From a virus: a stretch of 64,000 nt of DNA. Shown piece by piece: positions 3,328 through 27,779 of this stretch. The notes under the pieces are model-generated. The model was not told the origin of the DNA. It ran no database searches and was given only the letters and a program-made list of their open reading frames with translations. The DNA is taken from positions 27,364-91,363 of IMG/VR virus record IMGVR_UViG_3300031548_000002; one strand, given 5' to 3'. Position 1 is the first letter of the stretch, and each line of letters begins with the position of its first letter. The translations under genes were made by a program, and so were the position numbers.

Positions 3328-3341
3328 CGCTGACAACAACC

Positions 3342-8595: not shown

Positions 8596-8600
8596 CGGTG

Positions 8601-8648: not shown

Positions 8649-8680
8649 TAATACACGAGCAACGGACGAGGATGATCGAT

Positions 8681-8938
8681 ATGACGAAGATCTGGCTGGT
8701 GCTGCAGGGCACCGTGAGTCGCAACGTCGACGGCGAGCGCGTCGTCGTAAAACTTGAGGTCATCGCGCGCTGCGCGTACGAGGTGCAGGCGGAGCGCATC
8801 GCCGAGAGCCTGCGGTCGACTCACGCGGTGGCCGCGCGTCCGACGCGGGTTACCGCGCGCGGGTCGACCGTTGAGGACGCGAACGAGCACTCGTTCGTGG
8901 TCGCAGAGATGAGCTCACTGCTGGAGGGTGTACGATGA
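8681..8938 (+). CDS. hypothetical protein
   Basis: GAGG RBS; stop overlaps the next start. Confidence 0.6.
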   Translation: MTKIWLVLQGTVSRNVDGERVVVKLEVIARCAYEVQAERIAESLRSTHAVAARPTRVTARGSTVEDANEHSFVVAEMSSLLEGVR

Positions 8939-9708: not shown

Positions 9709-10100
9709 TGGTGACGAGTAAGACCAGCCGTGAGCGGTCCGAGCGGCTGCTGTTCCCCGAGCGGCAGCGCTGCCGAACGTGCCGCGCGCCGTTCGCGTTC
9801 ATCGTGATCGACCGGCAGTACTGCTCGTACGACTGCGCGGGAGTGCAGCCGCCGGACGTACTGGCGAAGCCGCGCTCGTGCTGGACGGACATCGGCGAGC
9901 CCAAGTACTGCTACTTCACGCCGGACGACGCGGACCGCGCCGCGCGCCTGCACAACGAGGCGCGCAACCCGCGGGATCGACTGCACGCGTACTACTGCGA
10001 CCGGCACCACATGTGGCACATCGGCCAGCCGCAGGACGTCACGGGCACCGGCAGCTCGATCGGCGACTGGGCCGACCGTGTGCTGGAGTCGCGCACGTGA
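9705..10100 (+). CDS. Zn-binding hypothetical protein
   Basis: CRTC...YCSYDC and YYCDRHHMWH. Confidence 0.7.
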   Translation: MMVTSKTSRERSERLLFPERQRCRTCRAPFAFIVIDRQYCSYDCAGVQPPDVLAKPRSCWTDIGEPKYCYFTPDDADRAARLHNEARNPRDRLHAYYCDRHHMWHIGQPQDVTGTGSSIGDWADRVLESRT

Positions 10101-10333
10101 TGAAGGCGCCCGTTGTGCTCGCGCTCGCGTTTGTGGCCGGCGTCACCGGAGTGGGAAGTCTCGCGCTGTTCGTCGTGCTCGAAGACTTCGACACGTACAC
10201 GGCGCGCGGCCTAACGCTACTGCTCACGGCGTTCATCTTGGGTGGTGCGGGGACGGCGCTACTGCTGTCACACCGTGATGCGATTGAGGCGTGGGTTCAC
10301 GAAGATAATGACGAAGGCGAGGATGCACCGTGA
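10100..10333 (+). CDS. two-TM membrane protein
   Basis: ATG overlaps the upstream stop; two hydrophobic segments. Confidence 0.65.
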   Translation: MKAPVVLALAFVAGVTGVGSLALFVVLEDFDTYTARGLTLLLTAFILGGAGTALLLSHRDAIEAWVHEDNDEGEDAP

Positions 10334-10602
10334 AGATCTACCTGACGAAGACGCGCTGGAACGCGCTCGCGCTGACCGATGATGGCGGCGTGCACCCGCG
10401 GCCGCTGTCCGTCGAGCTGCTGACCGGCGAGCTCGGCCTGGCGACGCGCGATGCGATCGTCACCCTCTCGGGACTCATCAAGCACGGCGTCCTGACGCGG
10501 GTGGGCGCCGAGTACCGTTGCACGCGGAAGGGCGCCGAGCTCGTCCAGCGCATGCGCGTCGGCACGATCGACGACGTCACCCTGGAGGTCGACGATGACT
10601 GA
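10330..10602 (+). CDS. small winged-helix-like protein
   Basis: LSGLIKHGVL...YRCTRKGAELV. Confidence 0.6.
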   Translation: MKIYLTKTRWNALALTDDGGVHPRPLSVELLTGELGLATRDAIVTLSGLIKHGVLTRVGAEYRCTRKGAELVQRMRVGTIDDVTLEVDDD

Positions 10603-11482
10603 GAGCGACGCTCGTAGGCTGCGAGTTTCACCGGATGAGGCCGTCGCCATGCTGAAGAACCTGTGGGAGATCTCGGGCACCGGTGAGCTGCGCGTCGCGA
10701 AGCACCTACTGCCCGATCGGATCCCGTGGTACAGCGACGTTCAGAAGCTGTCGCCTCTGGCGAGCAGCGATCACGACCAGCACACCTTCGGCGGCGCCAC
10801 CAATCCGCTGTGGGATATCATCCGCTGGATGCCCGCGGTGGACGGCGACTGCTGGTGCACACGGCACCCGAAGATCGGTCGGTCGTGGATCGAGCTGCGC
10901 ACGGATGCGTACCAGCGGTACGTTGAGTCGGGCGTCGAGCGGTTCGCTGTCTGCACTGAGTACGCGTTCTCGATCATCTCGCCCGGTGACGTCGCGTGGA
11001 TCTCACAGCTCGTGCGGGGCCGGCCGGTCGTCGAGCTGGGCGCGGGACGCGGGTACTGGGCGTGGCAGCTTCAGCAGGCGGGTGTGACGGTTCACGCGTA
11101 CGAGCCGTGCCGACCCGGCGACGACAACACGTACTTCACGTTCGGAGAGCAGTTCACGAATGTCGTGAAACGCGATCACACGGCGGTGGATGATCACCCC
11201 GACGCGGCGCTGCTCATGGTGTGGCCGGGCTACGGCGCCCCGTGGGCCGCTGACGCCTTGAAGCGCTACCGCGGCGACATGGTGATCTACGCCGGCGAGG
11301 GCGAGGGCGGCTGCACGGCGGACGACGAGTTCTACGAGGTGCTCAAGCGCGACTGGGAGTGGCTCGCCACATCCGACAAGCACGTCACGTGGTGGGGCAT
11401 CCACGACCACCTGCAGGCGTACGTGCGCAAGCAGAGTCCGCGCGTCTCGCTGGTCAAGGAGCCCGCGACGGTCGCGGGCTGA
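10595..11482 (+). CDS. class I SAM-dependent methyltransferase
   Basis: VVELGAGRGYWA motif I; LLMVWP; IYAGEGEGGCTA. Confidence 0.8.
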   Translation: MTESDARRLRVSPDEAVAMLKNLWEISGTGELRVAKHLLPDRIPWYSDVQKLSPLASSDHDQHTFGGATNPLWDIIRWMPAVDGDCWCTRHPKIGRSWIELRTDAYQRYVESGVERFAVCTEYAFSIISPGDVAWISQLVRGRPVVELGAGRGYWAWQLQQAGVTVHAYEPCRPGDDNTYFTFGEQFTNVVKRDHTAVDDHPDAALLMVWPGYGAPWAADALKRYRGDMVIYAGEGEGGCTADDEFYEVLKRDWEWLATSDKHVTWWGIHDHLQAYVRKQSPRVSLVKEPATVAG

Positions 11483-11496
11483 CACGAGAGGAAGAC

Positions 11497-12465
11497 ATGT
11501 CACACTTCACGCTGATCGTCGAGCTGCCCGAGGGCACGCTGCCCGACGACTACGAGAGTGAGATCGCGCGCCGCCTGGAGCGCTACGACGAGAACCGCAA
11601 GGTCGAGCCGTACCGGGACTACTGGGAGAGCGTCGACCCGCGCGACAACTGGGCGTTCGAGTACGTGTACGAGACGCTCCAGAAGAGCGACGAGAACGCG
11701 CCGGCGCCGGAGGACGTCACGCTCGAGCGCTTCGTCGCCGCGTACAACGAGCGCTACCACAACGACGAGGAGGACAGTGAGAAGCCGGTCGAGTACGACG
11801 CCGAGACCGGCCGGGCGTTCACGTGGTCGACGTACAACCCCGAGTCCAAGTGGGACTGGTGGACCATCGGCGGCCGCTGGCGCGGGTACTTCACCACCGT
11901 CGAGAAGATGTCGTCGGATGACGTTCAGCGCGTGCTGCTGACCGCGCCCCGCTGGATGAACGAAGACTACGAGGTGCACGATCGCGCGTGCGACGGCGGA
12001 CCGATCCGGCTGCTCGACCTGGAGGGCCAGCGCGCCACGGCGGTCGCGAAGGCGGAGGAGCGCTTCGCGACGTACGAGCGCGCGATCGCCGGAACACCCG
12101 AGGCGCTGTCGTGGACGGAGTCGCGCGAGTCGCACGACGACATCGAAGATGCGCGCGCGTTCTACCGCGAGCAGCCGCGCGTGCAGGCGCTGAATGAGGC
12201 GTTCAGCGACTTCGGCTTCGGCTGTCGGATCGAAGAGTTCCGGTGGGGTCGCGAGCTCTACGTGCACCGTGCGCGGCTGAGTGCCGTGCCGGGCTACGCG
12301 TACCTGACGCGCGACGACCGGTGGCTGTCGCCCGGCGACATGGGCTGGTTCGGGCTGAGCTCGGACACCGTGGAGAGCCGTGAGGCATACGACACCGCGG
12401 TGAACGGGCGGATCACGAGCCTCGGTCCCGATGTCGTGCTCGTGCTGGTCGACTGTCACATCTGA
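11497..12465 (+). CDS. conserved phage hypothetical protein
   Basis: GAGAGGA RBS; YNPESKWDWWTIGGRW and C-terminal LVDCHI. Confidence 0.75.
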   Translation: MSHFTLIVELPEGTLPDDYESEIARRLERYDENRKVEPYRDYWESVDPRDNWAFEYVYETLQKSDENAPAPEDVTLERFVAAYNERYHNDEEDSEKPVEYDAETGRAFTWSTYNPESKWDWWTIGGRWRGYFTTVEKMSSDDVQRVLLTAPRWMNEDYEVHDRACDGGPIRLLDLEGQRATAVAKAEERFATYERAIAGTPEALSWTESRESHDDIEDARAFYREQPRVQALNEAFSDFGFGCRIEEFRWGRELYVHRARLSAVPGYAYLTRDDRWLSPGDMGWFGLSSDTVESREAYDTAVNGRITSLGPDVVLVLVDCHI

Positions 12466-12473
12466 CGTCCTGG

Positions 12474-12518
12474 GTGCGGGTTCCGTGAATCGCACGGGAC
12501 CCGCACTTGTGGTATATT
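12474..12518 (+). promoter_or_regulatory. terminator hairpin fused with promoter
   Basis: IR 12474-12506 overlapping TCGCAC-N17-TATATT (12490-12518). Confidence 0.6.
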
Positions 12519-12560
12519 CGTATCAGGCGTAGACGCGCCTCGACACGACAGGAGAAGTCA

Positions 12561-12995
12561 GTGCACTACACTCACTACGTGGAGAAGACGTCCGGCGGGT
12601 CGTCCGGTGGGTCGACCGGTGGTAAGTCGGGCGGGACCACGTCGGGCGGCAAGTCCGGCGGCTCCACGGGCAAGTCTTCGACCAGCGGCTCCAGTACGTC
12701 CAGTGGCTCCAGTATGTCCAGTGGCAAGGTCACGATCAAGAAGCCCGCGGACCTCGCGAAGCTGCCGCCGGTAAGCGTGCCGCAGCCCAACGGTCCGGCG
12801 ATCGTGATGAACATGCAGGACTTCTGCGTCCTGCCCAACGCCAACGCGATCAACGCCGCCGTGTACGGCCAGTGCGTCGCGCGCAAGCGCAAGAAGGACG
12901 ATGACGACGTTCCCATGTGGGGCGTCATCCTCATCGTCGCACTGGTCGTCGTCCTGGTGATCGCGGCGCTCGCGTACTTCCTCAGCAACGACTAG
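12561..12995 (+). CDS. Gly/Ser-rich protein with C-terminal TM anchor
   Basis: SGGxxGG repeats; hydrophobic C-terminal helix; AGGAG RBS. Confidence 0.7.
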   Translation: MHYTHYVEKTSGGSSGGSTGGKSGGTTSGGKSGGSTGKSSTSGSSTSSGSSMSSGKVTIKKPADLAKLPPVSVPQPNGPAIVMNMQDFCVLPNANAINAAVYGQCVARKRKKDDDDVPMWGVILIVALVVVLVIAALAYFLSND

Positions 12996-14378: not shown

Positions 14379-14962
14379 TGGAGTGGCGACTGTTCGAAGA
14401 GGGCACGACGCCGTACGTCAGCACCGCCGAGTTTCACCGGGACCGCGAGCGCGCGCCGCACCTGGAGCAGGCGCACCACCGGGCGCGCATGGAGCTCGCG
14501 CTGGAGTGCGTGCGCGCCGCCGAGAACTGGTACGCCAAGCCGACGCTGTGCGACCTCGGCGCGGGCGACGGTGGGTTCCTGACGCTGGTCGCGCCGTACG
14601 TAAGTCGCGCGTGGGGCTACGACCTCTGTCCCGCGAACGTCGCGGGTGCGGCGGAGCGCGGAGTGAACGTCGAGCTGCGCGACTTCACCGCGGAGAAGCC
14701 CGAGCTGGGCACGGTGGTGACGACGCTGGAGGTCTTGGAGCACGTCGCCCGCCCGCACGCGCTGGTGAAGGCGCTGTGGCAGGCGGGCGTCCGGGTGCTG
14801 ATCGCATCATCACCGGTGGATGAGACGGAGGCATCTCACGACGCGGTTCACGCGTGGGCGTGGGACATGGACGGCTACCGCGCGCTCGTTGAGAGTGGCG
14901 GTTGGACCGTCGTACGGCACGAGACGGCCGGTCGGTACCAGGTGGTACTCGCTCGCAGGTAG
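14378..14962 (+). CDS. class I SAM methyltransferase (paralog of 42409..42978)
   Basis: DLGAGDG, EVLEHV, HAWAWD. Confidence 0.85.
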   Translation: MEWRLFEEGTTPYVSTAEFHRDRERAPHLEQAHHRARMELALECVRAAENWYAKPTLCDLGAGDGGFLTLVAPYVSRAWGYDLCPANVAGAAERGVNVELRDFTAEKPELGTVVTTLEVLEHVARPHALVKALWQAGVRVLIASSPVDETEASHDAVHAWAWDMDGYRALVESGGWTVVRHETAGRYQVVLARR

Positions 14963-14970
14963 GAGTAGCG

Positions 14971-16635
14971 GTGGGTTGGCGGAGAACCTCATCGGCGCGA
15001 CCGCGCGCACGCGTGATGCGCGGTGACCGCGAGAGTACGGCGCTCGCGGTCGTCGAGAGCCCCGCGCTGTCGCGCCGCGAGCACCGCGCGTTGCAGCGCG
15101 CCGCTAAGAAGAACGCGAAGAAGGAGTCGCTGACCGCGGCTGCCGCGATCATGCGGTCGGACACGCGCGGCACCGTCATCCAGAAGAAACGCTGGCAGGA
15201 TGAGGCGTGGGACAACTGGCGTGGTAACGGTGAGCTCTGGTACGCGACCGAGTGGAAGGGCAACGCGGTCTCACGCGTGCGGTTGAAGGCCGCGAAGATC
15301 GTGCCCGGCTCGGATGAGCCGGAGATCGTGGACGACGGTCCGGCGGCGGAGCTTATGGAGCAGCTCGCTGGTGGCATCGGCGGCCAGTCCGTGCTCATGA
15401 AGAGCTTCTCGATCAAGCTCGACATCGCGGGCGACTCGTATTTCATCATGTACGTGGATGAAGAGGGAGTTACGCACAGCGGGGTGTACTCCGCGGACGT
15501 CGTGCGCAAGGACACCAGCGGTGGTTTCTCACTTCAGCTGGATGAGTCCGGGCCAGTGCCGCTGCCGCGCGAGTCGCTGGTCGTCCGCATCTGGAACCCC
15601 GACGAGCAGTACCCGTGGCTGGCCATCTCGCCGACCGAGCCCGCGCTCAGCGTGCTGCGCGAGGTCGACCTCTACAACCGAAAGATCATCACCGAGCTGA
15701 CGGCGCGCATCGCCAGCAACGGCGTGTGGCTGATTCCCGATGAGGTGACGTTCCCCGTCCGCGACGAGTTCTCGGACGCGCCGGACCCGTTCATCTCCGA
15801 GTGGATCGACGTCGCATCGAAGGCGATCCAGAACCCGGGAAGTGCCGCGGCCGCACTGCCGATTCCGATGCGCGTGCCCGCGGACTTCATCGACAAGTTC
15901 GAGCACGTCCGCTTCTCGGACAACGTCGTCAAGGAGACGTTGGACGGTCGCGACCGCGCGCTGAGCCGACTCGCGAAGATGCTCAACGTTCCGGCTGAAG
16001 TTTTGACTGGCATGGGAGACGTGAACCATTGGGGGTCTTGGAAGATCGAAGACTCCGCGATCAAGATTCACGTGCTTCCCACGGTAGAAACGATTTGTCG
16101 TGGTCTCACGGTGGGGTACCTGCAGCCCGCCCTCTCCAATCAGAGCCTCGAAGAGTTCGACGATAATGACGTCGCGGATGACGCGAATGGCGAGCAGGCG
16201 CAATACGTCGTCTGGTATGATGCGTCCGAGCTGGAGAAGCAGCCCGACCTCGGCGAGCGCGCCGTCCAGCTCCACGACCGCGTCGCGATCTCTGACGAGG
16301 CACTGCGCCGCGCGACCGGCTTCGATGACTCCGACGCGCCGACCGACGAAGAGCGCAACGCGCAGATCCTGAAGAAGCTCGCGTACAGTGGCCAGCAGGT
16401 CACCAACGCGTACGAGGAGCTCACCGGAACTCCGGTGGCCGGCGTCGGGGACGAGGAATCCACGACCTCGCCCGAAGCGAACCTCCCCGCACCGGCGCCG
16501 GCCGCCGGGCCTGCGCCCACGGTGGTAAGACCACCGAGCACGCGCACCGAAGTACCGTCCGGTGAAAGTGGCGGACCTCCGGGCGCGAGCGTCGACACCA
16601 CCTTCCTCGAGATCGTTGAGAGGACGCGCACGTGA
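14971..16635 (+). CDS. portal protein
   Basis: WQDEAWD...GELWY, RIWNP, LNVPAEVLTGMGDVNHW typical of actinophage portals; AGGAG RBS before GTG 14971. Confidence 0.85.
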   Translation: MGWRRTSSARPRARVMRGDRESTALAVVESPALSRREHRALQRAAKKNAKKESLTAAAAIMRSDTRGTVIQKKRWQDEAWDNWRGNGELWYATEWKGNAVSRVRLKAAKIVPGSDEPEIVDDGPAAELMEQLAGGIGGQSVLMKSFSIKLDIAGDSYFIMYVDEEGVTHSGVYSADVVRKDTSGGFSLQLDESGPVPLPRESLVVRIWNPDEQYPWLAISPTEPALSVLREVDLYNRKIITELTARIASNGVWLIPDEVTFPVRDEFSDAPDPFISEWIDVASKAIQNPGSAAAALPIPMRVPADFIDKFEHVRFSDNVVKETLDGRDRALSRLAKMLNVPAEVLTGMGDVNHWGSWKIEDSAIKIHVLPTVETICRGLTVGYLQPALSNQSLEEFDDNDVADDANGEQAQYVVWYDASELEKQPDLGERAVQLHDRVAISDEALRRATGFDDSDAPTDEERNAQILKKLAYSGQQVTNAYEELTGTPVAGVGDEESTTSPEANLPAPAPAAGPAPTVVRPPSTRTEVPSGESGGPPGASVDTTFLEIVERTRT

Positions 16636-18788
16636 CGCGCATCACGATGGTCTCCGAGGCTGAGCTGCAAGCTGCCGCCGACGCGCTCGCCACGGACATG
16701 GTCGAGACGCTGCGTGCGGTTCTACGGCGCGCGGGCCAGGCGCTGGGCCAGACTATCACGGCGGCCGCCGAGCGGCCCGAGCGGGTCGTTCTAGACCAAG
16801 CTGAGACGGCCTGGCTGGACGCCGTCAACGGCGACTTCTTTCCGCGCGTTGTGAACGCCTACGTCTCCGCCGCAGAGCGCGCTCACCTGCAGCTCGTCGA
16901 CGTCTATGGCGGCGCGCCGGCCGCCGTGCCATTCGTGAGCCAGTCGGCGGCGGTCGCGTACCTCACGGACTCCGGCAACCGCATGATGAACGTCACGGAG
17001 GGCACGTGGGCGCGCGCTCGAGCGCAGCTCATTGAGGGTTTTCAGGCGGGCGAGTCGATCCAGCAGCTGACCGCTCGCCTGCAGTCGGTGAGCGACTGGA
17101 GCGAGTCGCGCGCCGCGACCGTGGCCCGCACTGAGATCATCTCCGCGTCCAACGCGGGCGCGCTGGCCGAGGTGCAGGCGACCGGTGCGATCGCGAAGAA
17201 GACGTGGCTCGCCACCAAGGATTCGCGCACGCGTGAGGCGCACCGTAAGGCTGACGGCCAGACGGTTAGCGTCAACAACGTGTTCATCGTGGACGGTGAG
17301 GCGCTGGACTTCCCGGGCGACCCGCAGGGTGAGCCGGAAAATGTGATCAACTGCAGATGTACTTTGTCACTTGACGTCAAAAAGTCGGAGCTGTCCGTCG
17401 CGCTGGAAGACCTGCCCGACGTCACCGACGAGTTCGACCCAGCGGACTTCGTCGACCTGGACTCGCTGGTCGCGGCGGCGTCGCGCATTGAGCTCGCGCC
17501 GCGTAAGAAGTACGACGAGTCGAAGCACAAGCGCGGTAAGGGTGGACGCTTCGCACCTAAGTCTGGCGGTGGCGGCGGTAAGATCGACTATAAGAAGAAG
17601 ACCGCCAAGAAGGCGCCCGAGCCGGAGCCCGCCGAACCGGCGAAGAAGATCAGCTACAAGAAGACCACCGCTAAGAAGACGGCCGCGCCTCCGACGCCGC
17701 CGCCCGCGCCGACTCCGCCGCCCGCTAAGAAGGCCGCACCGGCGAAGACGACCGGCAAGAAGATCGCGCCCACCCCGCCTCCGCCGCCGGTCAAAGAACC
17801 GCCCGCGCCGGAGATCGAAGAGCTGCCCACACCGGAGCCGGCTGCACCCGGCGGCATCGAGCCGAGCGCGCCGATCGTGCAGGTGACGCCCGAGGTGCGG
17901 GACGCGCTGGACCTGTCGGAGGGCGACTTCGCGGAGACGGGTAGCCGTGTGCTGGTCGGCGACCGTGCCGGAACGGTGCGCCACTCGACGACCAACGACG
18001 CGGATCTCAGTGATGAGCTCTGGGTGCAGTTCGACGATGACCCGACGCGCGTCCAGCGCATGGCCGCGACGGACGCTGAGGTGATCGACGCGGCGGATGA
18101 CGACTACGCGGACATCACGCGGTCGCCCTTCCCAGCGGACGTCGTCGAGAACCTGCCCGCGGGCGCGCCGTTGGGCGATGAGGACGAGAATGAAGCTGAC
18201 GAGGACGCGGGCGACGACGGTGCGGAGCTGCCGTTCGCGGTCACGCCCGGCTTCGAGCCTCTCACCGAGTCGGATGCCAACGACATGCAGGACGAGATGC
18301 TGGCGCGCGAGCCCTGGTCCGTGGCGCAGGAGGAAGCACTCACCGTGTACAGCGGCGACGCGTACACAGAGATGAACGGCTGCCTGCGGTTCGATGAGGG
18401 CTGCACGGATGACATCGAGTTCGACAACCGGCAGGCGTCCGCGGCGATGCGTCCCACGACGCGCGCGACGACGGTCACGCGCGGCGCGAACTTCCAGTCG
18501 CTGGGCATCAACAACGCGGCACAGCTGGAGTCGCTGGTCGGCGCCACGGTGAGTGACCACGGCTTCACCAGCACATCGATCGATCCGAACTCCGCGTTCG
18601 CCGGCGACGTCCGGCTGCAGATCGAGGTGCCCGAGGGTGCGCGCGCCGCGTACATCGACCAGATCAGCCAGAACGCGGGCGAGCGTGAGCTGCTGCTCGA
18701 CAGAGGCACGCGCTTCGAGGTGCTGGAAGTCCAGATGCCTGCGGAAGAAGGCATGCCCGCCGCGGTGCGAGTGAGGGTGGTTGTGTAA
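16632..18788 (+). CDS. MuF-like minor head protein with C-terminal VIP2-type ADP-ribosyltransferase
   Basis: RAATVARTE, KTWLATKDSRTREAH, PGDP...INCRC (MuF); TVTRG...FTSTS...GERELLL (R-S-E ART). Confidence 0.88.
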   Translation: MTRITMVSEAELQAAADALATDMVETLRAVLRRAGQALGQTITAAAERPERVVLDQAETAWLDAVNGDFFPRVVNAYVSAAERAHLQLVDVYGGAPAAVPFVSQSAAVAYLTDSGNRMMNVTEGTWARARAQLIEGFQAGESIQQLTARLQSVSDWSESRAATVARTEIISASNAGALAEVQATGAIAKKTWLATKDSRTREAHRKADGQTVSVNNVFIVDGEALDFPGDPQGEPENVINCRCTLSLDVKKSELSVALEDLPDVTDEFDPADFVDLDSLVAAASRIELAPRKKYDESKHKRGKGGRFAPKSGGGGGKIDYKKKTAKKAPEPEPAEPAKKISYKKTTAKKTAAPPTPPPAPTPPPAKKAAPAKTTGKKIAPTPPPPPVKEPPAPEIEELPTPEPAAPGGIEPSAPIVQVTPEVRDALDLSEGDFAETGSRVLVGDRAGTVRHSTTNDADLSDELWVQFDDDPTRVQRMAATDAEVIDAADDDYADITRSPFPADVVENLPAGAPLGDEDENEADEDAGDDGAELPFAVTPGFEPLTESDANDMQDEMLAREPWSVAQEEALTVYSGDAYTEMNGCLRFDEGCTDDIEFDNRQASAAMRPTTRATTVTRGANFQSLGINNAAQLESLVGATVSDHGFTSTSIDPNSAFAGDVRLQIEVPEGARAAYIDQISQNAGERELLLDRGTRFEVLEVQMPAEEGMPAAVRVRVVV

Positions 18789-21700
18789 TGGCCAACGGCG
18801 AAAAGCTCACGCCGCTGACGGACCCGAGCAACGTCCAGTGGGTCATCGAGCGCCCGGGTGATGCTGCCGCGACGACGGCTGCGGTCACGCCGCGCCCGAA
18901 GATGGCCGCATACTCCGCGCTGGTTGCGGCGACCGCGGTCAGCCTCAAGAAGAAGTTCGACGAGTCCAAGGTCAAGCGTGGGCCCGGTGGCAAGTTCGCG
19001 AAGAAGGCTGGCGGGGGATCGTCGGCGCCCGCGCCCGCAAAGAAGACCTCCGCGGCGCCGATCGCGTCCGGTAAGAAGATCACCAACAAGGTCATCTACG
19101 GGAAGCACGCCAACGGCTCGATCATCCAGTCCACCGACGGCCAGCACCGCATGGTCTACAATGCGGCGGGCAACAACTGGACGGTCCAGCGGCGCACGTC
19201 CGACGGCGGCTGGGAGGTCGTCGAGGTCCTCGGCAAGGGCGCCGCGTATAAGAAGGCGAACGCGCTCAGCTCTTCGTGGGGTGAGCTGCGCGCGGACGAT
19301 GATGAGGAGCCTGACGTCGCGACCGCGGCGACTGTGGATGCGGATGCCGGTGACGCCCCTGACGCAGGCACGACAACGAGTAATGCCTCCGCGGGACACG
19401 GCGCATTCGCGGACGGCTGGAACGACCTGTCGGCGTCACCACTGTCGGCGTATCAGATGGCGAGTCTGCACATCGAGTCGGCATTCTCCAATGAAGATGC
19501 TCTGAATGCGGGTCTCGCCGCGCAGCACGTCGCCAATTTGGCGAACAAGTACGGCGTCACGCCTGAGCAGGCGCTGGCCATCATCGACCATGAACGCGGC
19601 GACAGCGTGTACTCGGATCGCGTTCGCGCTCACCTCGCGGGCCAGCCATTTCCGCCGTCCACCCTGACCGTACCTCCGGGAACGCCGTTGGGCTCGGCGA
19701 AGAAAATCGCCGCGAAGAAGACTGCGGCGAAGAAGGTGGCGCCGCCCGCGGTCGCGCCGTCGCCGGCACCGGCGAAAAAGGCCGCTAAGAAGATTGCGTA
19801 CACAAATCCCATGGCGTCCGCACTCGCGGGCGAGGATGTGCCTCTCGCGCAGCTGGAGGCGCAGCAGGCCGCATCACAACAGATTCGAGATGCTCTTCAC
19901 AACTACAACAATGCATTGGCGGATCCCTCACTGACCGTCACGGACACGAGTAGCTACGCGTCCATCTTGTCGATTCTTAAGAAGCAGTATAAGAATAAGT
20001 ACGGTGTGGCGTGGTCGCCGTCACATCACGCTGCGGTCGTCGGGACGTACCAGAAGCAGCTCGCTAAGAGTGGACCCGCCGTAGCTCCAACGTCGGAACC
20101 GGCGACGCCCGCTCCGACGAAGAAGCCCGCGAAGTCGAAGACGTTCGCGAAGGGTGACTCGGTGATCGGACCGACCGGCGCGACGGGCGAGGTCGTCGCC
20201 GTTGCGGAGACCACCGGCACGAAGATCAAAATGTCGAAGGTGCAGTTTCCCGACGGTCAGGTGGGCTGGTTCAAGAACGACGAGCTCTCTGACGCCACGA
20301 CGGCGTCCAGTCCCGCCGCGGCGGATCGCCTGGACGGCGCGCAGAAGGGCGTCATTCCGGGAGCTTACGTCTACACGCCAGGAGGTGACATCGCGACCGT
20401 CGTAGGCCAGGGGCCGCCTAACGCGTATGGTGATCCGCAGGTCACGTTCCAGACGGTGAGTGGATCAACGGGCACACTCGCCGCCGGGGACTTGCGACCA
20501 CTTACGCAGTTTCAGATCGACTCGCTGACCAACGCGCCCGTCGACGGCGCGTACGTCAGCACTCCCATGGGTGACGGTTACGTCGTAGGTGCACCGTTCG
20601 CCAACGCGATCGGTAATCCATCGATCACCGTTGACGTCAACGGAACGCCCACGAAGTTCAACGTCAACGACGTGACGCCCGCGACGGCACCAACGCCTGC
20701 GCCCGCGGCTCCGGTGATCACGCCCGCGACGCCCGCCGCAGCTCCGGCACTGTCGTACGACGCCGACGGCGTTCCGATTCTTGACGACGCGCAGCAGGCA
20801 ATGCTCCAGAGTCACTTCAAGGATGCGGGCGTCAACTGGTACAGCGACACAACGTCGATCTTTGACGCCGCGTACGCCGCGTCCCAGGCGACGGGCATGT
20901 CCATGGAGGATGTGCTCAAGTACGCCGATGCGAACTACCACAGCTCGGCGAAGTTTGGCGGCAAGCCGTTTCAGGCCAAGGTTGAGAAGTGGGCGAAGTC
21001 TTCTAAGGGCAAGGCTCACGTTCAGGCGACGCTGGGCACCGCGCCGACCGGGGCGACGCCGACGTCGCTGGTGCCGGTTCGCACACCACCCGTTCCGACG
21101 CCGCAGCCGCCGCCCGCGCCCGCGAACATCACCGCGACCAACTACGGTTCGACGAGTCAGCCTCACGGTGACTTCTTTCCACTTTCCAGCGGTTACACCA
21201 CGTTGGATCCCGATGAAGCGCTCGAGCTGCAGCGTGAGATGGAAGCACAATCGGGTGCACTTGATCCGCGGGAAAGTAGCGCACTCACATACTATACCAG
21301 CGAGTCTTACCGTGAAATGAACAACTGCTTGCGGCGTGGTGAAGACTGTAACGCGGGTGTGATGTATCATAACGGCACGCGCTACACGTCGTACCAGACC
21401 AGCGAGTACGCGACGCAGGGAATGCGACCACTTACGCAGAACGTCACCCTGTACCGCGGCACGAACATCGAGTTCGCGCCGGACCTCAACCTGACGAGCG
21501 CGCACGACCTCGAGAATCACGTCGGATACATGGCACAGGACTTCGCTTTTTCCAGCGCATCGGTGAACCCTACCACCGCGCACAGCTGGGGTGCGGGCCA
21601 GTACAACGCGGTGATCATGCAGATCGAGGTACCCGCCGGCTACCCCGCCACGTACGTCGACCACATTTCCGATAACCCGGGCGAGTATGAAATGGTGCTG

Positions 21701-21790
21701 CCGCCGGGAACGCGCTACCGCATTGTGGAAGTTAAGCCGTCGCGCAGCATTTCGGACGGCGTCATTGTTCGAGTGGAGGTCATTCCGTGA
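18788..21790 (+). CDS. large virion-associated ADP-ribosyltransferase
   Basis: YTSESYREMN, TLYRG, FSSAS, GEYEMVLPPG; AKK-rich linkers; SH3/KOW-like repeats. Confidence 0.8.
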   Translation: MANGEKLTPLTDPSNVQWVIERPGDAAATTAAVTPRPKMAAYSALVAATAVSLKKKFDESKVKRGPGGKFAKKAGGGSSAPAPAKKTSAAPIASGKKITNKVIYGKHANGSIIQSTDGQHRMVYNAAGNNWTVQRRTSDGGWEVVEVLGKGAAYKKANALSSSWGELRADDDEEPDVATAATVDADAGDAPDAGTTTSNASAGHGAFADGWNDLSASPLSAYQMASLHIESAFSNEDALNAGLAAQHVANLANKYGVTPEQALAIIDHERGDSVYSDRVRAHLAGQPFPPSTLTVPPGTPLGSAKKIAAKKTAAKKVAPPAVAPSPAPAKKAAKKIAYTNPMASALAGEDVPLAQLEAQQAASQQIRDALHNYNNALADPSLTVTDTSSYASILSILKKQYKNKYGVAWSPSHHAAVVGTYQKQLAKSGPAVAPTSEPATPAPTKKPAKSKTFAKGDSVIGPTGATGEVVAVAETTGTKIKMSKVQFPDGQVGWFKNDELSDATTASSPAAADRLDGAQKGVIPGAYVYTPGGDIATVVGQGPPNAYGDPQVTFQTVSGSTGTLAAGDLRPLTQFQIDSLTNAPVDGAYVSTPMGDGYVVGAPFANAIGNPSITVDVNGTPTKFNVNDVTPATAPTPAPAAPVITPATPAAAPALSYDADGVPILDDAQQAMLQSHFKDAGVNWYSDTTSIFDAAYAASQATGMSMEDVLKYADANYHSSAKFGGKPFQAKVEKWAKSSKGKAHVQATLGTAPTGATPTSLVPVRTPPVPTPQPPPAPANITATNYGSTSQPHGDFFPLSSGYTTLDPDEALELQREMEAQSGALDPRESSALTYYTSESYREMNNCLRRGEDCNAGVMYHNGTRYTSYQTSEYATQGMRPLTQNVTLYRGTNIEFAPDLNLTSAHDLENHVGYMAQDFAFSSASVNPTTAHSWGAGQYNAVIMQIEVPAGYPATYVDHISDNPGEYEMVLPPGTRYRIVEVKPSRSISDGVIVRVEVIP

Positions 21791-22236
21791 CGACACCTGC
21801 AAGCGGTGAGGTAGAAGAGCGTGGCCCGACGGTAAGCTCACTGGTGGACCCCACGTCCGTGGAGTGGGTGTCACTGGTGCCCGTCTCCGAAGAGAATCCG
21901 TTCGATGAGGGTGAGCTGGATGAGGACGGCCTGACCGAGTCCGAGTTCGACATGATCTTTCGGCGACCCGCGGCGAGCGTTCCGATCAACCTCATCGCCG
22001 CAGTGGACGTCACAGAGAGTCCGCGCGAAGAGCTGCAGTCAGGCATGCCACGGCAGCTGAAGGACTACTGGCTGCGCGGCGAGGGCGCGGCGCAGATTCG
22101 GTGGGGCACCAAGGGTTCGTTCACCCGCTGCGTCCGCGAGCTGCGCGAGCACTTCCCCACGGGGACCGAGGGCCTGTGCGCGAACCTCTACCACGAGGCA
22201 ACGGGGCACTGGCCCGGTGAGGATCGTGACAAGTAG
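21787..22236 (+). CDS. head-module protein (YWxxGEGAAxIRWG domain)
   Basis: YWLRGEGAAQIRWGTKGSFTRC...GLCANLYHEATGHWPG, a domain seen in actinophage head modules. Confidence 0.7.
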   Translation: MTTPASGEVEERGPTVSSLVDPTSVEWVSLVPVSEENPFDEGELDEDGLTESEFDMIFRRPAASVPINLIAAVDVTESPREELQSGMPRQLKDYWLRGEGAAQIRWGTKGSFTRCVRELREHFPTGTEGLCANLYHEATGHWPGEDRDK

Positions 22237-23585
22237 TGGAGACGCTCGCACCGCGTAGACGCTTCGATGAGTCGAAGGTCAAGCGCAACAAGGGACGCTT
22301 CGCGAGGAAGGCGGTGGGCGCGCTCTTTCGCCCGCCGCCCGCGCTGGTGCGCGGCACTCCGGAGGCCAACGTCTTTCGACGTCACAACGACGGCGACGTC
22401 ACGCACGTGTCGGACGACGGCAGCCAGCGGATGGTCTACGATGAGGTCACCGACCAGTTCGATCAGCAAGTGCGTCAGCCCGACGGCTCGTGGCAGTCGA
22501 TCGGTAAGCGTGGTAAGCTTCAGGCGTACCTACTAACAAAGCTCGGCTGGCGCGCAGGTGAACAGGAAGATCAGGACGCACCCGCGCTGGCCGTTGACGC
22601 GGTGGACGTCGATTCGCCGGACGTTAGTGCACCGGATGCGAGTGCATCAGCGACACACTCTTCCATTGCGACGCCCGCGGACGACATCAGTGCACTGACG
22701 CCCGAGCAGATCCGTAACGCGTACAACGCGGTCAACGCCGCGGGCAGCGTGCTCAGCGACCCGTACACACCGCCGGAAGATCTCGCGCAAGTGGCGTCGA
22801 ACGTCGCTGACGAGCAGTCGCTGACGCCGCTGCAGGTGCTGCGCGCCGTCGACGCGCACGAGGCATCTCTCTACGGTGATCCCAACACGAATCGCATTGA
22901 GAATCGCGTCGTTCAGCACCTAGCGGGTGCGGACTTTCCCGCACCGGGTGGTCCACTTACGACGGACGGGCCCGCACCGGCACCACTTCCCGCGACCGTG
23001 GTCGCGCTACCGCACCAAGATACCGCGCCATTTCCGATAAGTGACGACTTCCCCACGCGAACCGACACTGATATGGCGCGCATTCAACGTGAGATGGAAG
23101 CGCAGAGCGGCGCGCGAACTCCCGCGGAGATCGCGGCGATTCGCGACTACTCCGTCACGGCGTACCAGGGCATGAATGAGTGCCTACGAACGGGAAGTGG
23201 CTGCGATCCCAATGTGATTGATCGCAATAATGAGCTTGAAAGTGCGATGCGTCCCATCACCGAACCGGTGACCGTCTTCCGACGCATGATGCTGGATAAC
23301 CTACCAGGTGTGACGTCGGCCGCTGACCTGCAGTCGCTGGTCGGCTCAGACATCACAGACGCCGGGTTTACCAGTACGTCGCTGGACCCCGCGCAGACTC
23401 AATTGTTCGGCAACGTGCGACTTCAGATCGCGGTGCCTACCGGAACGAGGGCCACCGTTCCGGGCGCACACAGCGTACACTCTGGCGAGCAGGAGGTCAT
23501 CTTGGCGCCCGGAACGCGTTATCGCGTCATCGACGTTGACACCTCGGGCACAACGCCCGCTGTGCAACTGGAGGTAGTGCTGTGA
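22236..23585 (+). CDS. ADP-ribosyltransferase (paralog of 18788..21790)
   Basis: YSVTAYQGMN, TVFRR, FTSTS, GEQEVILAPG. Confidence 0.82.
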   Translation: METLAPRRRFDESKVKRNKGRFARKAVGALFRPPPALVRGTPEANVFRRHNDGDVTHVSDDGSQRMVYDEVTDQFDQQVRQPDGSWQSIGKRGKLQAYLLTKLGWRAGEQEDQDAPALAVDAVDVDSPDVSAPDASASATHSSIATPADDISALTPEQIRNAYNAVNAAGSVLSDPYTPPEDLAQVASNVADEQSLTPLQVLRAVDAHEASLYGDPNTNRIENRVVQHLAGADFPAPGGPLTTDGPAPAPLPATVVALPHQDTAPFPISDDFPTRTDTDMARIQREMEAQSGARTPAEIAAIRDYSVTAYQGMNECLRTGSGCDPNVIDRNNELESAMRPITEPVTVFRRMMLDNLPGVTSAADLQSLVGSDITDAGFTSTSLDPAQTQLFGNVRLQIAVPTGTRATVPGAHSVHSGEQEVILAPGTRYRVIDVDTSGTTPAVQLEVVL

Positions 23586-25801
23586 CCACGCCCATCGATG
23601 TGAACACTAGTGAGTTCACGCCACTCACTGACCCGAACAATGCAGTGATGACGATTATCCCCACCGAAGATGAGGTCATTGAGGAGATCACCGAAGATGA
23701 GCTCGCCGCAGTTGGTGACACCTTCACCAGTGGCATGATCGCTCTCATTCCTACTGCTGCCAATGCTGAACGTCTCTACGCGGGCGAAGATGATTTTGGC
23801 GAGTTGCCTGAGGACTTGCACACCACGGTGATCTACTTGGGCGACATCACAAGTATGGACGAGCGAACGTTTAGCACGATCGTGGACGAGCTCGTGAACA
23901 TCGCCGATGAGGAGCTTGGGCCGGTCGTCGCGGAGGGGTTCAATGTCGCGCTCTTCAACCCACACACTGACGAGCGTGACACATGTGTGACGCTGGGTCT
24001 GAGCGGATCAACGCTTCACCTGCTCTGTAAGAAGATCCGCGACCGGATCATTAAGAAGATCGCCGGTGAGAGTTATCAGATTCCCGAGCAGCACGAGCCG
24101 TGGATTCCGCACGTGACGCTCGCGTACACCGAGGACTACTCCACGGTGGAGCGCCTGGCAGACCGCACCGGCGACATCACATTTGATCGTGTGCGCTTGG
24201 CCCTGGGTGATGATGTCTACGACTTCGATCTCAGAGACACGTTCAAGCCAGTGGATCTAGCTGACGTTGAGGACGACGCGGACTACGAAGAACTTAGCGA
24301 CGGCGAACTCTTTGGTGAGCTCTTCGCGGGCGCGGCAGTGTCGGAGATCGACCGAGACTCCACGATGGAATATAATGATCGCGAAGGTGAGGTGATGAAC
24401 GTGACCGACACGGTCGAAGAGGCCGCCGAGGTGGAGGTCTCCGAGTCCGAGCCCGGCGCGTGGTCCGGCGTCCTGATCGTCGAGGGCGTTGAGTCGGGCG
24501 ACGGTCGCATGTTCGCGGAGGGCTCGCTCAAGTCCGCGCCACTGCCGCTGCCGCTGATGTGGCAGAAGCAGACCGCCACGGGGCACGAGACCGCCGTGCA
24601 GGCGGGTCGCATCGATGAGGTGTGGCGCGAGGGCAACCAGATCTGGGGACGCGGAGTCTTCGACCTGGAGGGCGACGACGGCTACGAGGCGTACCGGCAG
24701 GTGGCGCAGGGCTTCCTGCGCGGCGTGTCCGGCGACGTCGACTCGGTGAAGGACTCTGACGTCGAGCTCGTCTTCCCGAAGTCCGGCGGTGCGGAGAGTG
24801 CGGAGGGAGCCGACGGCTTCGGCGACCTCTTCGCGGCGCCCGAGCTGACGATCTTTCACCGTGGCCGGCTGCGCGGCGCGACGCTCGTGCAGTTTCCCGC
24901 CTTCGTGGAGGCGTCCATCGCATTGGACGGTCAGACGCTCGACACGGACGAGACCGCGATCGAGGAGGGCCCGCACTCAGAGTTCGCCGATGACGACGCG
25001 ACCGAGCTTGCGATCGAGAGCGCCGGTGAGTCGGTGGACGCTGAGGACGAGGAGGAGATCGGTCACCTCGCTCGGCGCGCCGAGCTGACCGCCTGCGGCT
25101 GCACCGATGAGGCGCCGCCGACCGACTGGTTCGAGGACCCGAAGCTGTCCGGACCGACGCCGCTCACCGTCACGGAGGACGGTCGGATCTTCGGCCACGC
25201 CGCCGTCTGGGGAACCTGCCACACCGGCTTCTCCGGCACGTGCGTGACGCCGCCGCGCGAGCGACTCCACGAGTACTTCCTACTGGGCGAGACGCTCACC
25301 GCGGACGGATCCACCGTTGCCACGGGCTCCATCACACTGGGAACGGGTCACGCGGCGACCGGCGGCAAGCTCACCGCACTGCAGGCGATCGATCACTACG
25401 ACCACACCGGCACCGTCGTGGCGGACGTCGCGACGGGTGAGGATAAGCACGGCCTCTGGTTCTCCGGCGCGCTGCGGCCGAAGCTGTCGCCGTATAAGCT
25501 GCGCGCACTCCGCGCCGCGAAGCTGTCCGGCGACTGGCGCCGCTTCGGCAATGGGCTGCGCCTCATCGCGCTGCTGGCGGTCAACGTGCCGGGCTTCCCG
25601 GTGCCGCGCGTCAAGGCCGGCGCGCGCCGTGGGGTTCAGACGTCGCTGGTGGCCGCGGGCGTCAACCCGTACGGCCCGGGCGACCAGCAGAGCGCGGTCG
25701 AGCAGGAGGCGCTGCAGGCCATCGTGGCGAGCCTGAAGCAGCGCATCGGACGCGACGACAAGTCGCGGCTGGATGAGATCCGCAAGCGGATTGGGAGGTA
25801 G
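23582..25801 (+). CDS. 2H phosphoesterase (LigT-like) fused to putative capsid maturation protease
   Basis: LHTTVIY and PHVTLAY HxT motifs; EGVESGDGR, PLPLMWQ...GH, RGVS, RGATLVQFPAF protease-like region; GRIFGH...LSGDWR C-terminal domain. Confidence 0.8.
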   Translation: MTTPIDVNTSEFTPLTDPNNAVMTIIPTEDEVIEEITEDELAAVGDTFTSGMIALIPTAANAERLYAGEDDFGELPEDLHTTVIYLGDITSMDERTFSTIVDELVNIADEELGPVVAEGFNVALFNPHTDERDTCVTLGLSGSTLHLLCKKIRDRIIKKIAGESYQIPEQHEPWIPHVTLAYTEDYSTVERLADRTGDITFDRVRLALGDDVYDFDLRDTFKPVDLADVEDDADYEELSDGELFGELFAGAAVSEIDRDSTMEYNDREGEVMNVTDTVEEAAEVEVSESEPGAWSGVLIVEGVESGDGRMFAEGSLKSAPLPLPLMWQKQTATGHETAVQAGRIDEVWREGNQIWGRGVFDLEGDDGYEAYRQVAQGFLRGVSGDVDSVKDSDVELVFPKSGGAESAEGADGFGDLFAAPELTIFHRGRLRGATLVQFPAFVEASIALDGQTLDTDETAIEEGPHSEFADDDATELAIESAGESVDAEDEEEIGHLARRAELTACGCTDEAPPTDWFEDPKLSGPTPLTVTEDGRIFGHAAVWGTCHTGFSGTCVTPPRERLHEYFLLGETLTADGSTVATGSITLGTGHAATGGKLTALQAIDHYDHTGTVVADVATGEDKHGLWFSGALRPKLSPYKLRALRAAKLSGDWRRFGNGLRLIALLAVNVPGFPVPRVKAGARRGVQTSLVAAGVNPYGPGDQQSAVEQEALQAIVASLKQRIGRDDKSRLDEIRKRIGR

Positions 25802-25803: not shown

Positions 25804-25977
25804 GTGGGATGTGGATGTGGACGACGGCGCACGACCGCCGTGACGTCTGTGAATGAGGCCGAGCTGGCGCTTCAGAAGGAGCAGGAGAAGGAGTCGCTCG
25901 CTCGCGACCTGGCATCGCTGCGCGCGGCGGTCTACAACTCGCAGTCCGATGTGGTGGAGTCCGCCGGCCAGCAGTGA
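25804..25977 (+). CDS. small MGCGCG protein (57 aa, below ORF-track cutoff)
   Basis: GGGAGG RBS, GTG GGA TGT GGA TGT...TGA; fills the gap before the capsid gene. Confidence 0.65.
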   Translation: MGCGCGRRRTTAVTSVNEAELALQKEQEKESLARDLASLRAAVYNSQSDVVESAGQQ

Positions 25978-25992: not shown

Positions 25993-26021
25993 TTGCCGAG
26001 ATCAACACCGTGGTGTACAAT
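25993..26021 (+). promoter_or_regulatory. promoter for capsid gene
   Basis: TTGCCG-N17-TACAAT. Confidence 0.65.
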
Positions 26022-26060
26022 GCGCGTAAGGTTCATCAACGTGAAGCAAGAGGAAGCCGC

Positions 26061-27779
26061 ATGAATGGGTATCAGGGTCTGCCGGAGGACCTCTCCGCGC
26101 TGAGCGATGATGAGCTTCGCGCGCTGGAGGAGGCTGCGGTCGCGGCCTTCGACGAGGCCGCCGACCCGGAGAACGACGTCTCGGCCGAGGTAGTCGCGCA
26201 GGCCGCGCAGCTCGCCGACGACATCGACGCCATCCGCGCCGAGATCGCCTCGCGCGAAGAGATGGCACTGCAGCACGCCGCCGACCGTGAGGCGCTGCAG
26301 TCGCGCGTGCACGGCCGGGGCGAGGCACCGACCGAGGCCGCCGAGGAGACCACGCAGGAACTGGCCACGGAGCTCGCCGTGGAGGAAGGCGAGGAAGTGG
26401 ACGAAGACGAAGTCGTCGCGGGTGGGCAGCACTACAGCCCGGCGCGGACGACGCCCCGCAACGCGACCGGGAAGCGCAAGCTCAACGTCTCGCTGTCGGC
26501 GATCCAGGCGCGCGCGCCGAAGGTTGAGGTTCCCAACACCCCGTTGCGTTCGACGCTGGTCGCGTCCGCGGACATCCCGGGTTACGCCCAGGGCTCCCGG
26601 CTCGACTCGATGTACGACCTGGTTTCTGCGGCGCACAACCGTGTGCGCACCGTCGGCACCACGACGCGCGGTGATGACGCCCCGCGGTACACCGTCGCGT
26701 CGATGAACCGCAGCTTCAAGTACACGCTCGACCGGCAGGCCACACCGCAGCAGATCTCCGAGGTCCTGACCGCCGCGACCAACGTCAGCGAGCTCGTCGC
26801 CGCCGGCGGCTGGTGCGCCCCGTCCGAGATCTCGTACGACCTCTTCAACATCGTCTGCGAAGACGGCATGCTGGACCTGCCGACCGTGGGCATCAACCGC
26901 GGTGGCATCCGCTTCCCGATCTCCCCGGACTTCTCCAGCCTCTCGGGCAACCCGGCCCTCTGGACCTGGACCGAGACGCAGGACATCGCCGCCGTCACCG
27001 GCACTGACCAGTCGGGCGTCAAGACCTGCGGTCGCGTCCCGTGCGCGACGTTCTCTGAGGAGCGCCTCGCGTGCGACGGCGTTTGCCTCACCGTCGGCAA
27101 CCTCATGGACGACGCGTACCCGGAGCTCATTGCGAACCACATGAAGCTCCTGATGGCCTTCCACGCGCACAAGATGAACTTGTCGCGCATCAATAAGCTG
27201 GTGGCCGCGTCCGTCGCGGTGTCCGGCACGGTGGGCATGGGCGCCGTCGGCGAGTCCGTCATCAACAACGTCCTCGGGGCGCTGGAGCTGCAGGCTCGCG
27301 ACTACCGCGAGAAGTTCGCGATGTGCGAGGATGCCGTCCTCGAGGTCGTGCTGCCGCGCTGGATCCTCGACATGATGCGGTCGGACATCCGTCGCCGCAC
27401 CGGCGTCGAGCTGCTCTCGGTCGCGGACTCGTACATCGAGGGGCTCTTCGATGCCCTCGACATCCGCATCCAGTTCGTCGGCGACTGGCAGGTGCGCACC
27501 ACGGGCTTCCCGGGCGGTACCGGAACGCTGCTGGCCTGGCCGACGCAGGTGCAGGCGCTGATGTTCGCGCCGGGCACCTTCGTTCTCGGCGAGGGTCTCA
27601 CGCTGGACCTCGGCGTCATCCGCGACTCGGTGCTCAACCAGACGAACGACTACACCGCGGCGTGGATGGAAGAGTGCTGGCTGATCGCCAAGCTCGGTCA
27701 CGAGTCCCGTCTTCTCACGATCAACGTCTGCGCCAACGGCCGGACCGGTGCCGCCGACATCACCGCCTGCGGTCTCTGA
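26061..27779 (+). CDS. major capsid protein with N-terminal scaffold-like region
   Basis: Acidic coiled-coil N-terminus; LVAAGGWCAPSE, LDLP..GINRGGI, LDLGVIRDS.LN.TNDY. Confidence 0.88.
   Translation: MNGYQGLPEDLSALSDDELRALEEAAVAAFDEAADPENDVSAEVVAQAAQLADDIDAIRAEIASREEMALQHAADREALQSRVHGRGEAPTEAAEETTQELATELAVEEGEEVDEDEVVAGGQHYSPARTTPRNATGKRKLNVSLSAIQARAPKVEVPNTPLRSTLVASADIPGYAQGSRLDSMYDLVSAAHNRVRTVGTTTRGDDAPRYTVASMNRSFKYTLDRQATPQQISEVLTAATNVSELVAAGGWCAPSEISYDLFNIVCEDGMLDLPTVGINRGGIRFPISPDFSSLSGNPALWTWTETQDIAAVTGTDQSGVKTCGRVPCATFSEERLACDGVCLTVGNLMDDAYPELIANHMKLLMAFHAHKMNLSRINKLVAASVAVSGTVGMGAVGESVINNVLGALELQARDYREKFAMCEDAVLEVVLPRWILDMMRSDIRRRTGVELLSVADSYIEGLFDALDIRIQFVGDWQVRTTGFPGGTGTLLAWPTQVQALMFAPGTFVLGEGLTLDLGVIRDSVLNQTNDYTAAWMEECWLIAKLGHESRLLTINVCANGRTGAADITACGL

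Follow-up and report, generated by a model that had tools for sequence, protein, structure and literature searches.

Enzymes that resemble toxins and are loaded into a phage capsid must stay harmless, although made by the hundreds, in the cell that builds the virion, and the means by which this is achieved are largely unknown outside a few toxin-immunity pairs. Here we describe a short N-terminal peptide, the leader, that recurs on genes following ADP-ribosyltransferase (ART) genes in the head module of an uncultured actinobacterial phage (IMG/VR record IMGVR_UViG_3300031548_000002, 91,363 bp, G+C 64-67%). The window, that is, the whole stretch of DNA that was analysed, covers 64,000 nucleotides, bases 27364-91363 of this record. 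All genes of the head module are on the plus strand and every start overlaps the stop of the preceding gene. The portal gene is followed by five genes that encode ART1, ART2, gpC, ART3 and gpE, and these are followed, after a 57-amino acid gene, by the gene for the major capsid protein (Table 1).

The three ARTs match PF03496 (E values 8.6e-20, 1.7e-17 and 8.5e-16, Pfam), the R-S-E ADP-ribosyltransferase family. The residues R890, S923/S925 and E966/E968 of ART2 have aligned equivalents in the other two ARTs and in relatives. The nearest solved relatives of the ART domain are VIP2 and CdtA (E about 1e-7), VIP2 being the best. The helical domain of gpC reads YWLRGEG...CANLYHEATGHWPGE and is termed here the YW domain. 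It is free-standing in this phage and embedded in MuF-protease fusions in other actinophages, and a fold search with it gave no match in the PDB. The possibility that gpC and ART3 are joined by a frameshift was rejected, as a TGA at 22227-22229 in the ART3 frame leaves seven bases with no slippery run.

The leader follows the pattern h-T-x-[LV]-[TSV]-D-P-x-[NS]-[VA]-x-[WFLM]-V. Within the head module it is present near the N-termini of ART2, gpC and gpE and nowhere else. An earlier, sequence-only reading of the window had pointed to these three peptides, and the positions it gave for them proved exact to the base. It had also described their carriers as otherwise unrelated, and searches of Pfam and PHROG agree: ART2 belongs to PF03496, gpC to phrog_6439, and gpE combines a 2H phosphoesterase with a prohead protease. 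A six-frame translation of all 91,363 bp contains the shorter pattern [ST][PS]L[TV]DP exactly three times, each time at one of these N-termini. We built a hidden Markov model (HMM) of 20 positions from 38 non-identical leaders; the three N-terminal leaders scored 15.8-31.1 bits and the best unrelated match in three complete genomes 6.1 bits. ART3 has no match to this model, as the same reading had noted. The sharing of a leader by genes that follow an ART gene is thus confirmed as an observation and lies far beyond chance.

Each leader-bearing gene starts within the stop of an ART gene, through the overlaps TAATG (18786-18790, ART1/ART2), GTGA (21787-21790, ART2/gpC) and GTGA (23582-23585, ART3/gpE). 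The sequence-only reading had listed these overlaps, yet the portal/ART1 and gpC/ART3 junctions overlap likewise, so the overlap is not specific to genes that follow an ART. The motif itself begins 5-25 codons past the start codon, at a variable distance. The three copies are 40-62% identical in nucleotide sequence, and their conserved T, L, D, P and N residues are encoded by different synonymous codons. These two properties rule out the scenario that would have undone the original proposal, in which the motif is DNA copied along with the ART 3' end and decaying without amino acid constraint. The leader as a relic of the MuF C-terminus, or as a homologue of the ART1 segment LEDLPDVTDEFDPADF, was likewise rejected, the leader HMM having no match in ART1. 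At the extreme N-terminus of gpC, gpE and ART2 homologues, after the ATGA or GTGA overlap, the residues MTTP are nearly invariant; ART2 of the window begins with MANGEK in their place.

Table 1 Features of the head module and of the gpS locus. Positions are those of the window; residue numbers refer to the encoded protein.
Feature	Position	Strand	Description
Portal	14902-16635	+	Head module
ART1	16632-18788	+	PHROG head morphogenesis; MuF head domain PF04233 (residues 131-245) and C-terminal ART
ART1, features within			LVAAAS (279-284); basic tag KKYDESKHKRGKGGRFAPK (292-310); R-S-ExE ART domain, about 545-718 (PF03496 562-702)
Basic tag, ART1	17505-17561	+	
ART2	18788-21790	+	1000 amino acids: leader, LVAA site, basic tag, long linker, C-terminal ART domain
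ART2, ART domain			Residues about 790-1000 (PF03496 825-985); R890, S923/S925, E966/E968
Leader copy 1 LTPLTDPSNVQW	18806-18841	+	ART2 residues 7-18; HMM 31.1 bits
LVAAT	18920-18934	+	Candidate prohead-protease site after leader 1; LVAA at ART2 residues 45-48; L45 invariant in 6 ART2 homologues
Basic tag, ART2	18950-19006	+	
gpC	21787-22236	+	149 amino acids: disordered N-terminal leader, acidic spacer, all-helical YWLRGEG domain (85-149); phrog_6439, function unknown
Leader copy 2 VSSLVDPTSVEW	21832-21867	+	gpC residues 16-27; HMM 15.8 bits
LIAAV	21991-22005	+	Candidate protease site after leader 2; LIAA at gpC residues 69-72
ART3	22236-23585	+	No leader; C-terminal ART domain, about 283-449
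Basic tag, ART3 RRFDESKVKRNKGRFARK	22257-22310	+	Start of ART3, residues 8-25
gpE	23582-25801	+	Leader, ELAAVG, 2H phosphoesterase (HxT twice), prohead protease, SLVAAG in C-terminal tail
Leader copy 3 FTPLTDPNNAVM	23615-23650	+	gpE residues 12-23; HMM 22.7 bits
ELAAVG	23699-23716	+	Candidate protease site after leader 3; ELAA at gpE residues 40-43
SLVAAG (SLVAAGVNPY)	25643-25660	+	gpE protease C-terminal tail; kept in relatives; candidate autoprocessing site
Major capsid protein	26010-27779	+	Downstream of the 57-amino acid gene
TLVASAD	26553-26573	+	Major capsid protein, where its delta-like N-terminal region ends
gpS	46872-47072	-	66-amino acid open reading frame; CxxC...HxxxC zinc knuckle
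Fourth motif copy GPVTSTNDPDNVQFV	about 46887-46943	-	C-terminal in gpS; HMM 21.1 bits

The association of the leader with ART genes extends to related phages. A 92-kb relative (G001, L006), whose portal and capsid protein are 73% and 85% identical to those of the window, has the same five genes and three leaders, and three fragments (L039, L040 and L045) have the layout of the window. In a 62-kb phage with a capsid protein that is 52% identical (G002, L020), a leader-bearing 2H-YW-protease gene comes after the only MuF-...-ART gene. In all readable contexts a leader gene comes after an ART C-terminus: three times in the window, three times in L006, twice in L039 and once each in L040, L045 and L020. 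About 14 phages in which MuF, YW, 2H and protease form a single chain lack both leader and ART, and so do L046 and L049, where the MuF and protease genes are separate. The expectation that the motif would track ART genes in relatives, and be missing where the ART is missing, was borne out in the contexts that could be read. Whole-genome scans of the three complete genomes counted three ART domains and three N-terminal leaders in the phage of the window, three and three in G001, and one and one in G002. ART3 is leader-less also in G001, L039, L040 and L045, which agrees with this match in numbers, since the leader of gpE would serve the ART domain of ART3.

About 30 gpC homologues keep the motif, with the consensus LTxVSDPxNAxF or LTPLTDPDNVxW and an invariant D21, and ART2 homologues retain K6, T8, L10, D12, P13, N15, V16 and W18. 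A profile of 11 leaders, compared with 5.8 billion proteins with no upper bound on protein length, matched only gpC-like, ART2-like and 2H-protease-like proteins and one further protein, P0052. Of 1.84 billion representatives, searched exhaustively with the HMM, eight matched at E ≤ 0.001; four of them look real, and three of those four are short N-terminal fragments. Both searches indicate that the motif is rare and confined to a small phage group. Among cultured phages (INPHARED) there was no near or protein-level match to the leader regions and no close relative, and the matches to the L020 protease begin after its leader. A search of IMG/VR with gpE as a single protein found nothing, and a DNA pattern for TPLTDPxN found 13 stretches there, real only in G001. 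P0052, a metagenomic protein of 510 amino acids, carries leader, 2H phosphoesterase, basic tag and ART in one natural chain, with QxE in place of ExE. Its domain order indicates that modules were shuffled within this phage group.

The sequence-only reading had suggested that the leader of each gene binds the ART encoded before it, and complex prediction was carried out for one such pair, the ART2 catalytic domain (residues 790-1000, 21155-21787 on the plus strand, alignment of 6 rows) with residues 1-75 of gpC (30 rows). The complex scored 0.91, 0.90 and 0.91 in three runs and the best of three controls scored 0.01, a prediction that supports binding for ART2 and the gpC leader. Of 80 solved complexes 58 reached this score mark, as did 2 of 110 mismatched pairs; these figures apply here only approximately, since the prediction used our own alignments. 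The partner pLDDT (predicted local distance difference test) was 48-49 and contact agreement between runs at least 63%. On the side of gpC, the confident interface consists of residues 16-30 and 32, that is, the motif, and W27 has the lowest expected error. On the side of ART2, the predicted contacts are residues 836-849 (the YxxxYxxxNxxLR helix), 890-900 (with the catalytic R890), 914-925 (a strand and the STS motif), 930-938, 963-968 (ExE) and 976-977. Together these segments form the cleft for nicotinamide adenine dinucleotide (NAD), and the model, which supports docking, places the leader there. We know of no solved complex of the ART-leader kind, so it seems unlikely that the model reproduced a structure already known to it. 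In the AlphaFold2 monomer of gpC the leader is predicted to be disordered, with a pLDDT of 44-59, and the YW domain is confidently predicted as a bundle of helices, with values above 90; disorder of the leader by itself fits a linear motif that would become ordered upon binding. A CLR-x4-C loop was considered as a marker of leader-binding ARTs and rejected, as it is absent in L020.

Each leader is followed by a site of the LxAA or LAA type, as had been proposed. An LxA[AS] equivalent is found in 22 of 29 leader-bearing homologues and VAS[SA] in the remainder, after a spacing of 20-55 residues that is often acidic; gpE homologues have ELTAAG/A or LVAAA immediately before the 2H domain. The same motif occurs at the delta boundary of the capsid protein and in the tail of the protease, and so looks like a motif at canonical prohead-protease positions. 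In six of eight aligned capsid proteins, [LV][VL]A[SA] precedes [AS]D[IV]PG (TLVASADIPG in the window); the match is looser in L049 and L046. The herpesvirus assemblin site, (V/L)-x-A/S, recalls this motif. Judged from these sequences, the prohead protease may cleave the leader.

A second common tag, [KR][KR][FY]DESK[HV]KRxxG[KR]FAxK, lies upstream of every ART module. It comes directly after LxAA in ART1 and ART2 and at the very N-terminus in ART3, and from these positions cleavage would leave the basic tag N-terminal on all three ARTs. In L020 a variant of it, FVEKQHPRDNDGKFKKKG, stands after MuF and follows VTAAG.

Taken together, comparative genomics and the one complex model argue best for a leader that is made to meet an ART domain. 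Docking of the leader on the ART and its later clipping are partly supported, by in silico evidence. With confidence just short of even, we favour the reading that the leader is a disordered linear motif which docks in the NAD cleft of an R-S-ExE ART and plugs it until it is clipped in the prohead. The docking partner would most simply be the ART encoded directly upstream, whose C-terminal catalytic domain would be finished before the translationally coupled next gene starts. Docking would then pair head-module proteins one to one, MuF-ART1 with ART2, ART2 with gpC, and ART3 with the gpE protease, and a docked leader, by plugging the active site, would keep the ARTs silent in the producing cell. 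The LxA[AS] motif 20-55 residues downstream would be the prohead-protease site of this group, the leader would probably be clipped inside the prohead, and clipping would release active ARTs for injection with the DNA. Inhibition, the pairing of each gene with the one after it, cleavage, packaging and injection are steps that we infer; of these, inhibition gains plausibility from the position of the modelled site in the catalytic cleft and from the precedent of the pair Tre1-Tri1, discussed below.

Several points weigh against this reading. It is based on sequence analysis and on one structure model of a single ART/leader pair, and the interface residues of the ART are mostly universally conserved catalytic residues. 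At this depth, residues of the ART pocket did not co-vary in any visible pattern with the class of leader, defined by W, F or L/M in its aromatic position. In the AlphaFold2 model of P0052 the leader is disordered (pLDDT 27-36) and does not dock in cis, a weak negative. LxAA is frequent in these alanine-rich proteins and occurs also inside the mature capsid fold, which makes it weak evidence of cleavage. The lineages that show the adjacency to ARTs are few, about three to four, and the MuF-ART phages Gretchen and Zanella have no such leader on the next gene; ARTs of this family thus do not in general depend on one, and the device is lineage-specific. To our knowledge, Alt of phage T4 is packaged with no known inhibitor. 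Finally, a tyrosine integrase (PF00589) was not found in the 91-kb record, serine integrases not having been searched for, so a virulent lifestyle is possible and a role in classical immunity doubtful.

The sequence-only reading had also stated that no separate immunity gene exists. This holds inside the cassette but must be limited in view of gpS, a small protein encoded elsewhere in the window, which carries a fourth copy of the motif in its C-terminal end, EDVGPVTSTNDPDNVQFV. The gpS gene lies outside the head module; its neighbours are a DUF932 gene on one side and, on the other, a holin-like gene with a CHAP lysin. The motif copy of gpS has no cleavage site after it. A syntenic open reading frame in G001 (L051:1501-1692) is 54% identical, the motif-bearing C-terminal stretch being the best conserved, and the set of 5.8 billion proteins yielded gpS itself as the only match. 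Upstream of gpS there are an inverted repeat, a TTGACA hexamer and a GACACGA box; a simple promoter scan of this region found no consensus promoter. If the motif is an ART plug, gpS could, we speculate, be a free inhibitor made outside the head operon. A fuller version of the plug reading takes this up: a peptide of 15-20 residues would act as a portable plug, removable by protease, that captures virion ARTs co-translationally and chains the cargo. It would be the first thing translated after each ART domain, one plug would be carried by the prohead protease itself, and the cutting of all plugs in the prohead would leave the enzymes active only inside the sealed capsid. The separately encoded gpS, with the same plug, might then silence the injected ARTs again in the newly infected cell. 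In this full form we hold the proposal to be doubtful.

The main alternative, and a serious one, is that the leader is a capsid-targeting signal of the T4 capsid-targeting sequence (CTS) type, which would bind the scaffold, the delta domain, the portal or the protease and be removed by the prohead protease, adjacency to ARTs being a by-product of gene order. The T4 pattern is alike, with short N-terminal propeptides that are common to unrelated internal proteins and cut by gp21, and Alt, which is also an ART, loses one (PMC9026906, PMC3012670). The leader of the window is predicted to be disordered, is N-terminal and has a protease-like site after it, and it occurs only where cargo is not covalently fused to MuF. 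Two proteins of the cultured 91-kb Gordonia phage Chidiebere (L023), gp26 (8590-9678, an ART) and gp27 (9678-12593), have an N-terminal motif of their own in common, VRDxE[YF]WGxPYGTPITPG. It may be a head-cargo tag, and it suggests that such tags are frequent in actinophage head modules. A targeting signal would, on the other hand, be expected on ART3, which is free-standing cargo and has no leader; the basic tag is no substitute, since ART2 has both. Such a signal predicts neither the one-to-one match of leaders and ART domains nor a high-scoring docking on the ART cleft, and it would not account for the copy at the C-terminus of gpS. On balance we judge it unlikely.

Quite unlikely in our estimate is a second alternative, in which the leader docks on the ART for physical coupling and not for inhibition. 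As a non-covalent snap, the leader would stand in for the covalent MuF-cargo link that went missing when ART modules split an ancestral MuF-YW-2H-protease polyprotein, and all pieces would enter the prohead riding on MuF and the protease. The docking model supports this reading too, and linking the cargo in a chain for loading could be the main role of the contact. Relatives have MuF, YW, 2H and protease in one leader-less chain, the split genomes that contain ARTs have leaders exactly at the breaks after the ARTs, and a route into the head would exist for each part (ART1 via MuF, ART2 via ART1, gpC via ART2 and ART3 via the protease). The separate and leader-less MuF and protease genes of L046 and L049, however, mean that such a link is not generally required, and gpS bears the motif and has no obvious cargo role. 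The modelled site is moreover the catalytic cleft (R890, STS and ExE), where access of NAD would be blocked regardless, and tethering is therefore hard to separate from inhibition.

That the motif is a functionless vestige, either a linker or junction copied in a module duplication or a translational-coupling element at the nucleotide level, is very improbable: module shuffling is evident, as in P0052, and all operon junctions are overlapping start/stop pairs, but the idea is largely refuted by the low nucleotide identity and synonymous codons of the copies, the motif is kept across lineages with capsid proteins only 52% identical, the coupled portal/ART1 and gpC/ART3 junctions lack it, and its distance from the start codon varies.

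Two neighbouring features were noted in passing. The coiled-coil-like 57-amino acid gene between protease and capsid protein (25804-25977) may encode a scaffold or a decoration helper. A sequence homologue is present at the same position in L048, and MellowYellow and Abt2graduatex2 have small open reading frames of similar size there. In L046, the portal is a protein of 893 amino acids (1002-3683) whose first 390 or so residues include a stretch that resembles the N-terminal splicing region of an intein (C...TEILTENGW...).

If the leader is a removable plug, it would be a compact and transferable route to a conditionally active ART. It would account for the absence of immunity genes in these cassettes and give a sequence signature by which regulated effectors could be found, and it would mean that the order of genes in an operon and their translational coupling can serve to silence an enzyme as soon as it is made. 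If it is a targeting tag, it would be the first candidate capsid-targeting sequence for actinobacteriophages, which would be useful for packaging foreign proteins.

Parts of this arrangement have counterparts in known systems. In the type VI secretion system of Serratia proteamaculans, an N-terminal extension of Tri1 occludes the active site of the ART Tre1 (PMC8120803, section 5.6). Tre1, an R-S-E ART, is neutralised by the product of the adjacent gene; for the leader, whose gene likewise adjoins that of an R-S-E ART, our model predicts a position in a cleft of this type. Tri1 serves solely for immunity and has a DraG-like hydrolase domain, whereas the extension described here is carried by ART2, the YW protein and the prohead protease, none of which has an ADP-ribosylhydrolase (DraG-like) domain by Pfam. 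Unlike in Tri1, the leader is followed by a protease-like site and lies in a virion-assembly operon, and there is no sequence similarity between them.

The T4 capsid-targeting sequence, present on IPI-III, and the propeptides of Alt are cut by gp21 during maturation (PMC9026906, sections 2.5-2.6; PMC3012670). Here too a short N-terminal peptide is common to unrelated proteins, presumed internal to the head and including an ART, and a candidate protease site comes after it. The T4 sequence binds the scaffolding core and is found on each internal protein; in the window and the relatives named above, the free-standing ART3 has no leader, there is one leader for each ART domain, and the model gives the ART cleft as the partner. 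The cleavage site in T4 is LxE and the candidate here LxA[AS], and the leader has no sequence similarity to the T4 sequence.

MuF toxins usually have immunity genes downstream (Jamet et al. 2017, PMC5576092). In the prophage system of Bxa, Bsi and BAH, binding of Bsi blocks the ART Bxa (PMC11699363). As in those systems, MuF is fused here to a C-terminal ART, presumably delivered together with the DNA, and the candidate neutraliser lies immediately downstream; ART1 is itself such a MuF-toxin fusion. The known systems use a separate small immunity gene and belong to temperate phages, whereas the candidate here is a leader of 15-20 residues on the next gene, along a chain of three ARTs. A small downstream gene (less than about 150 amino acids) as described by Jamet et al. 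is not what follows ART1: the next gene is the overlapping one for ART2, of 1000 amino acids, and the cassette holds no other plausible open reading frame. gpC, with 149 amino acids, does follow ART2 but consists mostly of a head-module domain, which is conserved and in other phages forms part of a fusion with MuF or the protease.

Phage polyvalent proteins (Iyer, Burroughs, Anand, de Souza, Aravind 2017, PMC5512222), for which packaging and injection are predicted, share with this module the combination of MuF, ART, 2H phosphoesterase and peptidase near portal and terminase genes. They are single chains, a form that relatives of our phage do have for MuF, YW, 2H and protease; in the window this set is split over five coupled genes, and the motif recurs at the breaks after the ARTs. 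If the plug reading is true, what is new in comparison with both MuF toxin-immunity pairs and polyvalent proteins is that the neutraliser would be a removable leader on the next gene, chained from one protein to the next and carried even by a protease.

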